Below, in pieces: positions 21,119-24,000 of a DNA stretch of 24,000 bases. The stretch lies in NCBI RefSeq assembly GCF_003201855.1, contig NZ_QJKI01000032.1, forward strand, positions 6,338 through 30,337, written 5' to 3'. Both the position numbers and the translations under genes were made by a program. The notes under the pieces were generated by a model that saw nothing but the letters and a program-made list of their open reading frames with translations, did not search any database and had not been told where the DNA came from. Every line of letters starts with the position of its first letter. The first letter of the stretch is position 1. This DNA comes from Rivihabitans pingtungensis. GTDB lineage: Bacteria; Pseudomonadota; Gammaproteobacteria; Burkholderiales; Aquaspirillaceae.

Positions 21119-22618
21119 TTAGCCAGCCCCAGCCATTTGCACAGCCACTAAGCGTCCTCCAGCGTCTGTTGAGAGCAAAATTTGTAAGCCCTCCTCCAGC
21201 AGCACGCTTTCTCCTGGAGCAATCGGGGTTTTGGTGCTCATATTGCGCATACTGGTCAGACGTTCGTTCACCAGATACCAGTTGCCATGATGCTGTTGAA
21301 AATACCCCACTCGCTTGGCATCTTGCTCTTGCAGCTTTTCATTCGGAAAAATAAATCGATTCTCATGCCAGCGAAACAAGGACTGCCCACTGTATACCAT
21401 CACCCGATGGCCATCTGGCATGAATTTCCCTTGCGTGACAGGCGAATAAAGATTCAATACAGGAAGCTTGCCCTGATGCGGGGTGCCACAAAATGGGCAG
21501 CGTGGCGCATAGGTGTTGTCAAACGGATACCACTTTTGCCCGCATGCACTATTTGCGCATGGCTGTAGCAAGTCCACCGTCTTGACCAAGGCTGTTTCCC
21601 ATTCCTCCGCTGCCGGGCGCTGCAAAGGGTTGTGCAGGCCATTCACAAACGCTCGTGAGAAGAGTTCACTCAAGTAGGGCCCGGTCACCGAATAAGGAAT
21701 TTTGGCTGTATCTTTCCAGGGTAATTCGCTGGATTTAAGATTGGCAGGCTTGATCCGGTTAGATGCATCTTGTGGATGCTCAATAAACAGTGCGCGCTCT
21801 CCCATCATTAACTCATCATCACGACTGGCATCTGTATCGTGAAATTTGTCACCACGCAATGGATGGCGATACAGCAGATACATATAAATCATGACTGCCA
21901 AGGCGTGCAGATCAGTGACGCGGGATGGCAGTTTTCGATCGGCATCACCAATTGGCATATGTGCGGTTTTGACTACCTCGGGGGCGATGAAATCGGGTGT
22001 GCCAATCACCGATGGAGGATGTTTGCCAGGCACGACCAGACCATCCAAATCAATTAGACATGCCTGTCCTGTGGTGGGATCCACCAGACAATTGTTGTAT
22101 CCCAGATCAGAATGAGATAAACCCGCCATATGCATGCGACGCACCGCCCGGGCTAGCATCAGGCAAACTTGCAAATGCAAGCGCCAATCTCCCAATTCAC
22201 GCGAATCCAGATATTTGGCGCGATGGGTAGGCGTGGCAAACCATTTGCCAACTTTTTCTTTGTGACGGATACCTAATTGATCATTATTCTGGCTGCCATG
22301 CTTGAAGAAAAAGATATCCCGATAAAACGGCACTACCACCCCTAAACGCTGATTGTGCTCTACCACGGCCGATGGCCAGCAAAACAGCTTTTGTAGATAG
22401 CTCCCCCCTTCTTTGTTGAAGATATTCTCACGATAGCGCCCGGTAATTTCCAATAGCCGCTCACGTGTGGCTGCCGTGGCCTTTTCCCGATAAAATGCTA
22501 CCACGTAACTTTTATCAGGGCTGAACATCACATCTTTGACGCCGCCTTGAGCCTTTACTTCATCAAAAAAACGGACGGTAGTCCCATCGCTTGCCGTTAC
22601 GGTAATGATCTTGGCCAT
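21119..22618 (-). CDS. Atypical Hanks-type Ser/Thr protein kinase with C-terminal zinc ribbon and FHA-like tail
   Basis: Kinase-domain features:
- Catalytic loop HSDLGYNNCLVD (HxDxxxxN).
- DLDG in place of DFG.
- GTPDFIAPEV (APE motif).
- A degenerate Gly-loop (AQGGVKDV).

The kinase domain is followed by C-x4-C...C-x2-C (CANSAC...CPFCG). An ~110-aa tail then ends HGNWYLVNERLTSMRNMSTKTPIAPGESVLLEEGLQILL, which is FHA-like. The GAGGA SD overlaps the upstream stop, leaving a 7-nt gap to the PP2C gene. Confidence 0.8.
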   Translation of the reverse strand: MAKIITVTASDGTTVRFFDEVKAQGGVKDVMFSPDKSYVVAFYREKATAATRERLLEITGRYRENIFNKEGGSYLQKLFCWPSAVVEHNQRLGVVVPFYRDIFFFKHGSQNNDQLGIRHKEKVGKWFATPTHRAKYLDSRELGDWRLHLQVCLMLARAVRRMHMAGLSHSDLGYNNCLVDPTTGQACLIDLDGLVVPGKHPPSVIGTPDFIAPEVVKTAHMPIGDADRKLPSRVTDLHALAVMIYMYLLYRHPLRGDKFHDTDASRDDELMMGERALFIEHPQDASNRIKPANLKSSELPWKDTAKIPYSVTGPYLSELFSRAFVNGLHNPLQRPAAEEWETALVKTVDLLQPCANSACGQKWYPFDNTYAPRCPFCGTPHQGKLPVLNLYSPVTQGKFMPDGHRVMVYSGQSLFRWHENRFIFPNEKLQEQDAKRVGYFQQHHGNWYLVNERLTSMRNMSTKTPIAPGESVLLEEGLQILLSTDAGGRLVAVQMAGAG

Positions 22619-22625
22619 ATTGTCC

Positions 22626-23927
22626 TCAATAAATCAGAGCGATCGTCCGGTCATCGTGATTGCCTGGTGACCAGAAATCCAGCCATGCCAGTAACCGTTT
22701 AGCCACATCAGCATCCCTTTGCGCTAACTGCACCTGATCTTCAAGCTCAGCCCACAGCGCCTGCCAAGCTTCACCATGTGCCAACAAGGCCTCGGTTTCA
22801 AATTTGGGGTCTGACACGCCATCGGTCATCAAGATAAAGGCCTTGTAATCTTCGACCAGACAATGACGAATTCGCCCGTGTAATTCATCCGGGGTGACCG
22901 CCGAGCTATCCAGAAAGCGAGTTTGGCCAGAATACTCTCCGGAATCTGGCTCTCCTAACAACTTCACCTTGCCATCAGGCAGCAGCACCCCAGCCGCACC
23001 ATCGCCAATCCAGTAAGCAGCGCACAACCACTGAGCCCCCACCTTGCATGAAAGGCCAATCAGCAAGGTCGTGGATAGTGCTTTTAATGCTTTCGCCGGC
23101 TCGGGCCTTTTTCGAGCTTCATTATTCAAAGCAACCATCGCCGCATGTGCGGCACGGCCCAGCAAAAACCTAAGCACATTAGTTAATTGCTCAGCAGATT
23201 GAGTTTGAACCGCCTGTTGAATATTTCGTGTTCTATCCTCCGCCCCAGTCAAAAGCGCTTTAAGTTCGGCACCTGCGGCCTCAACCGCCAGTTTTGATCC
23301 CAAGCGTGCTTCGCTGGCGCTACCCGCACCATCCGCGACAATGGCAATATGCTGCTCATCATCATCATGCACTAAGGTCTCAATAAAAAAATCGTCATCA
23401 CAGCAACTGCCCACATGGGCATGCGAGCGACCTCGCTTGCGGGCAGCCACAATGTACTTGCTTGTCACTTGCCTGGCTTCGCAGAGCTCATCAACCTTCC
23501 AATGTGGCAGAGTGCGATCCGACGGTTTGTTTTCCCACAGCAATTTGGGATCAGGATTGACAAACAGCGTCACCCGAGCCCGCTGTATGGGAGCAGATTT
23601 ATCTTTGCTCACATGGTATTTAAGATCAATGGGATGCTCTCCACTGACCATTGGGACCCCCTGTACCCGCAATGTGCCCGGCTCCCACCTCAAACCAAGG
23701 TTAGCCGGAATATCCACGGCAACCAGATGAACTTCCGGTTCTACCGGCGAAACGATAAATTTTTCATCAAACGGTTGCGATTGTCGGGCATTACGAAGCT
23801 GAAAGAGTATAACCGGAGTCATCAACCTGGGCACCACGGCAGGCGGCCCAGCAGAAGAATTCGCAGCAGGGAGGATGGCACTTTGATCAGGCAGTATTTC
23901 TTTAGCTGGCGGCACATTTGATGGCAT
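22626..23927 (-). CDS. PP2C-family (PPM) Ser/Thr phosphatase with ~170-aa N-terminal extension
   Basis: It has the PP2C motifs RGRSHAHVGSCCDDDFF, IAIVADGAGSA, ILMTDGVSD and NHDDRTIALIY. The start is uncertain. The reading frame upstream of ATG 23927 stays open to the window edge, and an internal Met (MTPVILF, 23822) is also possible. Confidence 0.78.
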   Translation of the reverse strand: MPSNVPPAKEILPDQSAILPAANSSAGPPAVVPRLMTPVILFQLRNARQSQPFDEKFIVSPVEPEVHLVAVDIPANLGLRWEPGTLRVQGVPMVSGEHPIDLKYHVSKDKSAPIQRARVTLFVNPDPKLLWENKPSDRTLPHWKVDELCEARQVTSKYIVAARKRGRSHAHVGSCCDDDFFIETLVHDDDEQHIAIVADGAGSASEARLGSKLAVEAAGAELKALLTGAEDRTRNIQQAVQTQSAEQLTNVLRFLLGRAAHAAMVALNNEARKRPEPAKALKALSTTLLIGLSCKVGAQWLCAAYWIGDGAAGVLLPDGKVKLLGEPDSGEYSGQTRFLDSSAVTPDELHGRIRHCLVEDYKAFILMTDGVSDPKFETEALLAHGEAWQALWAELEDQVQLAQRDADVAKRLLAWLDFWSPGNHDDRTIALIY

Positions 23928-24000
23928 AGCGGTTGACTTTATCTCTGAGGGTGATGGGGGAAGCCTTTGCTTAGAGGAATATTCATTTTCAATCTTGCGA

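Follow-up and report, generated by a model that had tools for sequence, protein, structure and literature searches.

The right end of a Rivihabitans pingtungensis contig segment carries the kinase and PP2C genes of a TerY-P triad at the edge of a horizontally acquired ter island

We analyzed a stretch of 24,000 nucleotides (nt) of Rivihabitans pingtungensis DNA (contig NZ_QJKI01000032.1, positions 6,338 to 30,337), referred to as the window in the following, and concentrated on its right end (21119–24000), which contains the genes for an atypical Ser/Thr kinase and a PP2C phosphatase. With them ends a terY operon that borders a ter island. We consider it very probable that the region represents the 3' end of a six-gene operon coding for a vWA protein (TerY), a TerD-type protein (TerX), a second TerY, a vWA protein with a TerY-C domain, the PP2C phosphatase and the kinase, that this operon contains the TerY-P triad of a horizontally acquired ter (tellurite resistance/stress) island, and that the kinase and the phosphatase would constitute a reversible switch acting on the Ter complex. 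TerY-P systems consist of a vWA protein, a PP2C phosphatase and a Ser/Thr kinase with a Zn ribbon and are hypothesized to be metal-sensing phosphorylation switches, according to PMC11090510, which cites Anantharaman et al. (2012); the content of the latter study is given here as it appears in PMC11090510 and PMC4978471. An initial annotation of the same DNA, made from the sequence alone, had interpreted the region along these lines. This interpretation is supported, and the observations behind it are confirmed in part.

The PP2C reading frame is open through base 24000 (...RKIENEYSSKQRLPPSPSEIKSTAM...), and its continuation was found on near-identical contigs from other samples. At least 23 metagenome contigs code for exactly this kinase protein. 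Contig L001 is 99.86% identical to the window over 2,915 nt, and contigs L002–L006 are 99.1–99.7% identical and contain the same junction between the kinase gene and a gene of the glyoxalase family. Upstream of the PP2C gene, L001 codes for a vWA protein of 212 amino acids (aa), a TerD protein (215 aa), another vWA protein (212 aa) and a vWA protein with a TerY-C domain (349 aa; PF15616, E = 6.7e-47, L001 7292–8341). Because the successive spacers along the six genes measure 23, 24, 24, 2 and 7 nt, the genes form a compact operon. Across a divergent spacer of 522 nt, L001 additionally carries genes for three TerD proteins, a fusion of TerD with a vWA-TerF-like part, AIM24 and ATPgrasp_Ter, and genes for TerC, TerB and TerA are not visible in the available 11.5 kb. 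The AIM24-family gene (PF01987) and the fusion gene are located at 1355–1972 and 2085–3410 of L001, respectively. The continuation of the operon past the window, as proposed in the initial annotation, is thus borne out by TerY genes on contigs of 99.1–99.9% identity, and the TerY-like vWA gene anticipated there is represented by three vWA genes, accompanied by TerD and further ter genes. Taken together, the locus contains what characterizes a ter-locus TerY-P system: an adjacent vWA gene (outside the window), a PP2C gene, a kinase with a predicted C-terminal Zn ribbon, a TerY-C domain and linkage to ter genes.

The same arrangement is found in many other bacteria. A tblastn search with the kinase against PLSDB retrieved 2,357 plasmid records at about 59% identity and 99% coverage, mostly from Klebsiella, Escherichia, Enterobacter and Salmonella. 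On a Klebsiella ter plasmid, the genes for VWA, TerD, VWA, TerY-C, PP2C and an 'InaA-family kinase' lie beside terA, genes of the terZ side and an ATP-grasp/phosphoribosyltransferase cluster, and a Conchiformibius plasmid contains the same six genes, followed by genes for TerC and TerD. We also compared 80 loci from species-representative genomes of Betaproteobacteria, Cardiobacteriaceae and many Bacteroidota. The PP2C gene lies directly upstream of the kinase gene in 79 of them, and upstream DNA is limited to 90 nt at the one locus left. Matches to the vWA protein with the TerY-C domain were present upstream of the kinase in 70 loci (most of them over the full length, query residues 1–349), and TerY1, TerY2 and TerX were matched in 68, 68 and 54 loci, respectively. 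The gene order of a vWA/PP2C/kinase triad of the 'TerY-P' type, to which the region had initially been compared, is therefore kept in Klebsiella ter plasmids and in 70 to 79 of the 80 genomes. At least 4,012 proteins of the collection searched belong to the kinase family, and the nearest ones (73–80% identity) are those of Rhodocyclaceae, Azonexus, Uliginosibacterium and Vitreoscilla-type Betaproteobacteria. When the 3-kb region was compared by megablast with plasmids and E. coli genomes, nothing matched because the DNA is too diverged, and homology is visible at the protein level only.

The region differs strongly in composition from the remainder of the window. The GC content of 21119–24000 is 0.509, compared to 0.622 for positions 1–21000, and the sliding profile changes from about 0.62 to 0.48–0.53 at about 21.0 kb and stays there to the window end. 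Windows of equal size (2882 nt) taken elsewhere have a mean GC content of 0.623 with a standard deviation of 0.010 and a minimum of 0.586, which places the region more than 10 standard deviations below them. The GC contents at third codon positions (GC3) are 0.51 for the kinase gene and 0.49 for the PP2C gene, compared to 0.64–0.81 for nine other genes of the window. The break coincides with the spacer of 170 nt between the stop of the kinase gene (21119) and the start of the glyoxalase-family gene (20948), and the low-GC, horizontally acquired island placed from about 21.1 kb onward in the initial annotation is confirmed by these values. All 11.5 kb of L001 show a GC content of about 0.51. 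Because at least 11.5 kb of DNA of about 51% GC are embedded in a chromosome of 62% GC, the island is horizontally acquired. In close relatives (L009, L010 and L011; metagenome-assembled genomes of Betaproteobacteria/Rhodocyclaceae; module at about 5300–11500), the GC content of the module equals that of its flanks (0.57–0.65), and the TerY-P module apparently has been resident there long enough to ameliorate, which is not the case in the window. Since the module is 11 points below the host here and equal to the flanks in the relatives, its composition suggests a comparatively recent acquisition.

The genes on the high-GC side of the break have ordinary chromosomal functions and code for a flavin adenine dinucleotide (FAD) oxidoreductase, a PAS-GGDEF-EAL protein, an ornithine carbamoyltransferase, an inositol monophosphatase, a patatin, an extracytoplasmic function (ECF) sigma factor and a Crp-family regulator. 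A crude promoter scan of 20400–24000 found none, which fits an operon-internal position of the two genes. A weak terminator-like hairpin is located 45 nt past the kinase stop (21059–21074, minus strand; CCGGTGCCTGTACTGG then CTTTTGTAAG). The consensus scan behind it yielded 10 sites of this kind compared to 4.2 expected, and the hairpin may serve as the operon terminator.

The kinase is an atypical eukaryotic-type protein kinase (ePK). The AlphaFold model of the whole protein (predicted lDDT score, pLDDT, 83.9) was matched by Foldseek to CaMKII, phosphorylase kinase (PhK) and GSK3 over about 330–400 alignment columns (E about 1e-8) and exhibits a complete two-lobed ePK fold. Within the canonical Hanks set of ten invariant residues, the DFG motif is replaced by D-L-D-G, HRD by HSD, the Lys of the catalytic loop by Gly and the beta3 Lys by F42, while the Asp and Asn of the catalytic loop (HSD..N) and the APE motif are retained. 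Residue conservation was assessed in an alignment of 40 homologues of 62–100% identity. The A212-P-E214 motif is invariant in all of them, as are the key residues of the catalytic loop and both Asp of the D-L-D-G motif (Table 1), and the reading of HxDxxxxN, APE and DLDG in place of DFG by the initial annotation is confirmed. The catalytic D171 was aligned to D141 of E. coli YegI, a kinase that autophosphorylates with a preference for Mn2+, loses autophosphorylation in the D141N variant and loses activity when its DSD motif is changed to DFG or DSG (bioRxiv 10.1101/819920). Because the DLDG motif is common to the experimentally active YegI, it represents a family hallmark and not a sign of a pseudokinase. 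YegI is dephosphorylated by PphC (bioRxiv 10.1101/303594), and the biochemistry of these two proteins is the only experimental model available for the kinase/PP2C pair. Within residues 25–45 (22483–22545), the kinase contains an invariant K28-D29 following G25-G26 of the Gly-loop, and R/K44 is located two residues past F42. As judged from the alignment, K28, in a possibly WNK-like placement, and R/K44 are candidates for the basic residue contacting ATP. NCBIfam yielded solely sub-threshold partial matches for the kinase (lanthionine synthetase kinase domains, Kdo kinase and Bud32). The database names 'InaA/LPS kinase' and 'helix-hairpin-helix' were dropped as uninformative.

The C-terminal tail of the kinase (residues 345–499) was modelled alone, the whole-protein Foldseek search being swamped by kinase matches. 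The AlphaFold model of the tail has a pLDDT of 86.7, and the best 50 neighbours from the PDB are all FHA domains, among them those of APLF, DgcB, aprataxin, GarA, PNKP, MDC1, OdhI and Rv1747. The Foldseek probabilities amount to 0.94–1.00 at modest E-values (1e-3 to 5e-2), with target-normalized template modelling (TM) scores of 0.42–0.63, or 0.22–0.24 for two multidomain entries. The likeness consists in a predicted beta-sandwich of the 11-strand type formed by the last 115 residues or so, and the model supports an FHA-like fold of the tail. An hhalign comparison of the tail with the FHA domain of GarA, whose sequence was entered by hand, was not significant (probability 0.6%), and searching PDB profiles with the tail returned no FHA chain but weak Zn-ribbon look-alikes alone. 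The resemblance of the predicted Zn ribbon to those of COX5B and eS31 in the PDB profile search is weak and non-significant (E 0.2–0.8). Ten tail residues are invariant in the 40 homologues in a family-specific pattern (W417, H418, N426, E427, R436, Y439, F440, W447, N451 and E452). With the strands mapped by hand onto the model, the apical phosphopeptide-binding loops would carry W417, H418, N426, E427, R436, N451 and E452 instead of the GR/SxxH/N residues. Thus, of the C-terminal zinc ribbon plus phosphothreonine-reading FHA-like module recognized initially, the four invariant Cys and the FHA-like fold stand, while an FHA signal was not detected in the sequence and a role as phosphothreonine reader is putative. 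Our literature search retrieved reports of Zn-ribbon or OB-fold tails of TerY-P kinases and none of an FHA-like domain; the founding paper of 2012 was outside that search.

The PP2C phosphatase contains the conserved metal-binding Asp motifs D315-G, G424-D-G, D485-G and D541-D (numbering of the 549-aa protein). It is translationally coupled to the kinase as noticed before, with a spacer of 7 nt and a Shine-Dalgarno-like motif over its stop codon (Table 1), and the distance from the PP2C stop to the kinase start is mostly 2–14 nt in 69 related genomes. Other parts of the initial gene model had to be corrected. The start codon had been placed at an ATG at 23927, but the frame is open to 24000, and the gene codes for 549 aa on contigs L001–L006 (up to 99.9% identical to the window), starting 348 nt beyond the window and 2 nt past the stop of the TerY-C gene. 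An exact-sequence look-up of the 433-aa version found nothing because its start is wrong and the real product has 549 aa. The region before the catalytic domain comprises about 280 aa, compared to the roughly 170 aa given previously; some 150 aa of it are variable, and a module of about 130 aa is conserved. Similarly, the third gene that had been suspected from a frame ending in KGFPHHPQR* 13 nt before this ATG does not exist: the frame is open for 24 codons only and is an out-of-frame reading of the 5' part of the PP2C gene. Comparison with related genomes supports the long form: in 49 of 57, the frame of the PP2C gene can be read back to a start codon at most 30 nt from the stop of the upstream gene (median gap, 3 nt), although the N-terminal stretch is not conserved in sequence. 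Pfam gave no match at E<=10 for the first 280 aa, including the pre-catalytic module. The motif 'IPANLGLRWEPGTLRVQGVP' within this module resembles the PxGL...G.l.G.P signature of Ig-like domains of the He_PIG type.

Table 1. Features at the right end of the window, listed from the island border toward the window end
Feature	Position	Strand	Description
Glyoxalase-family gene, host-side flank	20529..20948	-	139 aa, GC 0.63, GC3 0.66; called Glyoxalase on L002/L003
Spacer, left border of the low-GC island	20949..21118		GC profile; weak terminator-like hairpin inside; same junction in five independent assemblies (L002–L006)
TerY-P kinase gene	21119..22618	-	Atypical Hanks-type Ser/Thr kinase with predicted Zn ribbon and FHA-like tail; 499 aa; Pfam Pkinase 6e-10
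FHA-like beta-sandwich tail (predicted), residues ~383–499	21122..21472	-	Tail model and structural neighbours in the PDB
Zn ribbon (predicted), residues ~350–380	21479..21571	-	C354/C359/C374/C377 (C-x4-C-x14-C-x2-C), four Cys invariant (40 homologues); short beta-hairpins in the model
D190-L-D192-G replacing DFG	22040..22051	-	Both Asp invariant (40 homologues); aligned to YegI D159-S-D161
Catalytic loop H169-S-D171-L-G-Y-N-N176	22091..22114	-	H169, S170, D171, L172, Y174 and N176 invariant (40 homologues)
PP2C stop and 7-nt spacer	22619..22628	-	TAT TGA GGACAAT ATG; GAGGA Shine-Dalgarno-like motif overlaps TGA
PP2C phosphatase gene, 3' 1375 nt	22626..24000	-	Last 457 of 549 codons plus stop; runs off the window, frame open to base 24000
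PP2C_2 catalytic domain	22680..23435	-	PF13672 3.4e-41; aligned to E. coli PphC including the common VADGAGS motif
Conserved pre-catalytic module of PP2C, residues ~151–280 of 549	23436..23825	-	Occupancy 0.86–1.0; N162, G194, G206, P208, G212, N240, P243, L246, W247 and D262 conserved
Variable Pro/Ser/Ala-rich N-terminal region of PP2C, part	23826..24000	-	Identity to relatives 6–11%, occupancy ~0.5

Among the known systems, the ter-locus TerY-P triad on IncHI2 or pLVPK-type plasmids of Klebsiella, E. coli and Serratia corresponds best to the region, sharing the gene order VWA-TerD-VWA-VWA+TerY-C-PP2C-kinase and the domain content. Across 99% of its length, Zn ribbon and tail included, the window kinase is 59% identical to the plasmid kinases, and ter genes adjoin in both cases. 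The window copy differs from them in being chromosomal instead of plasmid-borne, in the N-terminal 150 aa or so of its PP2C, which are unrelated in sequence, and in the visible gene cluster, which contains AIM24, TerF-like and ATP-grasp genes, whereas terZABC are not visible in the 11.5 kb. The likeness to yegL-yegK(pphC)-yegI of E. coli, which had been pointed out initially, turned out to be one of distant homology. Pairwise BLASTP comparisons gave E-values of 6e-6, 1e-5 and 1e-15 for YegI, PphC and YegL versus the kinase, PP2C and vWA proteins, respectively, at 23–31% identity. YegI aligns to kinase residues 107–400 (23% identity over 311 columns, ending at the CPxC motif) and shares with the window kinase the D-x-D motif replacing DFG, the catalytic Asp and the CPxC motif after the kinase domain. 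However, YegI is a protein of 648 aa that passes the membrane twice and ends in a different C-terminus without an FHA-like domain, and its C-terminal half has no counterpart in the window kinase. YegI also retains the beta3 Lys and has no Asn in the catalytic loop, whereas the family of the window kinase contains a Phe at the former position and keeps the Asn. Moreover, PphC (253 aa) lacks the N-terminal extension of the window PP2C, YegL has no TerY-C domain, and no ter genes are located near the YegL locus. As judged from these alignments, the gene set of the window is a distant homologue of the YegL-PphC-YegI set and not a member of it, the proteins being remote paralogues or orthologues from different subfamilies.

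The following model builds on directly observed features, namely the domain identities, the gene order and its conservation, the foreign composition and the conserved catalytic residues of both enzymes, and takes its mechanistic part from the biochemistry of YegI and PphC and from what Anantharaman et al. (2012) hypothesized, as summarized in PMC11090510. The kinase would be active on Ser/Thr in the manner of YegI, probably with a preference for Mn2+, and its metal site would be D-x-D in place of the DFG motif. It would autophosphorylate and phosphorylate partner proteins, most plausibly the metal-binding TerY proteins with vWA domains of the MIDAS (metal-ion-dependent adhesion site) type or the variable N-terminal region of PP2C. 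The Zn ribbon and the FHA-like tail would dock the kinase to its partner, possibly at a phosphothreonine site, and the co-translated PP2C phosphatase would erase the phosphorylation marks. The two enzymes would thereby provide a reversible switch for tuning the Ter stress complex, which involves proteins of the TerD and TerC families. A further-reaching version, which we regard as possible but rather unlikely, takes the tail for a genuine, highly divergent phosphothreonine reader. The triad would then represent a self-contained circuit of writer (kinase), reader (tail) and eraser (PP2C) docking on phosphorylated TerY or on the variable PP2C N-terminus, and the Lys contacting ATP would have moved in WNK style to the Gly-loop strand (K28).

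Several points weigh against the interpretation of the region as a kinase/phosphatase switch on an acquired ter island. The switch model is a hypothesis from comparative genomics, and no substrate is known for any TerY-P kinase of a ter locus. The genes upstream of PP2C are deduced from near-identical contigs of other samples and not from the window's own continuation. Only one border of the island falls within the window, and no integrase or repeat is associated with it; a tRNA scan detected none in the window, and the right border is outside the available sequence. Mobility or att features, for which the initial annotation had suggested searching, are accordingly absent from the only border inside the window. 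The tail shows no FHA signature in its sequence (no Pfam match at E<=10), and the canonical GR, SxxH and N residues for phosphothreonine binding are not recognizable in it. Finally, the canonical beta3 Lys position is occupied by an invariant Phe throughout the kinase family (F42 in 'VVAF'), whereas YegI contains an essential Lys there ('VAK'), and the ATP binding of the kinase must therefore be unconventional.

The most credible alternative to the proposed switch is that the triad works on its own in anti-phage defence, as a system of the 'TerY-P' type described by Gao et al. (2020), sensing infection and acting by phosphorylation, with the ter genes being incidental neighbours as in a defence island. 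The same three-component composition, also found in the TerY-P modules associated with CoCoNuT systems (Bell et al. 2024), which likewise combine a vWA protein, a PP2C phosphatase and a Ser/Thr kinase that bears an accessory domain at its C-terminus, is in line with this explanation, as are the protection by TerY-P-like modules against T7-like phages (PMC7699616; PMC11090510) and the phage inhibition by ter clusters of IncHI2 plasmids (Whelan et al. 1995, as cited in PMC8115787). The CoCoNuT type also carries a Zn ribbon (PMC11090510). However, the kinase of the defence variant is C-terminally fused to an OB fold (PMC11090510), whereas the tail of the window kinase adds an FHA-like domain to the predicted Zn ribbon, and the neighbouring genes are ter genes and not McrBC or restriction genes. 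In the scan with defence models suggested initially (PADLOC-DB v2), the kinase domain weakly matched the generic kinase models of the kinase-based systems PD-T4-6 (1.9e-5), mad6 (5.6e-5) and MkoA (1.5e-4) and no TerY-P model, and the four TerY/TerX proteins and the full-length PP2C matched no family at E<=0.01, nor did the PP2C fragment of the window at E<=1; the presence of TerY-P models in this library is unconfirmed. Because only generic kinase models were matched, and none by the PP2C or TerY proteins, the locus is not filed as a defence system of the Gao type, and it is not a recognizable member of that family. Together with the tightly packed operon, which includes a TerD gene, lies beside TerD, TerF and ATP-grasp genes and is kept in most of the 80 genomes, this renders a stand-alone defence function improbable. 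The explanation is partly compatible with the proposed switch, in that defence or stress response may be the role of the ter island as a whole.

Two other explanations deserve hardly any credence. The GC break could be an artefact, i.e., a chimeric join of DNA from two organisms during assembly, and indeed it is abrupt and coincides with an intergenic spacer, and the exact kinase was found on metagenome contigs only, which makes the window look metagenome-derived. Such a chimera is excluded by the kinase-glyoxalase junction itself, which recurs at 99.1–99.7% identity in five assemblies from different samples, one of which (L002) reaches 760 nt into the high-GC side. The two genes might also be a generic housekeeping pair of a Hanks kinase and a PP2C phosphatase, or the kinase a lipopolysaccharide (LPS) kinase of the Kdo/InaA type, without any relation to ter functions. 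Many orthologues go under the name 'lipopolysaccharide kinase InaA family protein' at NCBI, and the kinase has a Pfam Kdo match just above the cutoff (6.5e-5, residues 152–192), but this match is confined to 41 residues of the catalytic loop, the model of the whole protein has the two-lobed ePK fold, the synteny with TerY and TerD is near-universal, and no envelope or LPS genes are adjacent. We therefore retain the proposal of a TerY-P triad at the end of a terY operon.

Some observations on the host side of the window are unrelated to the island. A local GC dip to 0.49 (19001–19500) surrounds the spacer 19199–19332, which separates the ECF sigma factor gene (18611–19198, minus strand) from the upstream gene of the Crp-family regulator (19333–20304, minus strand), and is likely an ordinary AT-rich spacer outside the island. 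The most GC-rich stretch of the window (0.68–0.73 GC, with 0.61 at second codon positions) contains an open reading frame of 358 aa (17017–18093, minus strand) without a Pfam match at E<=0.001, and a plus-strand frame at 16969–18027 overlaps it as an alternative reading. An ordinary PAS-PAS-GGDEF-EAL protein of cyclic-di-GMP signalling (1004 aa) is encoded at 3247–6261 on the plus strand.

The locus is an ordinary member of a known and widespread family, and the FHA-like tail is its only mildly new point, for which we do not claim novelty. Links to hypervirulent Klebsiella and to pathogenic E. coli exist for the widespread ter locus, and resistance to tellurite, phages and colicins has been reported for it. 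The window adds one more chromosomal and, as its composition suggests, recently transferred copy in a high-GC host, which leaves the general picture unchanged. At the level of the family, the analysis yields as by-products the predicted FHA-like tail, the D-x-D motif in place of DFG, the Phe at the position of the beta3 Lys and the long, variable N-terminus of PP2C that translationally abuts TerY-C, and these observations hold equally for the better-studied enterobacterial orthologues.

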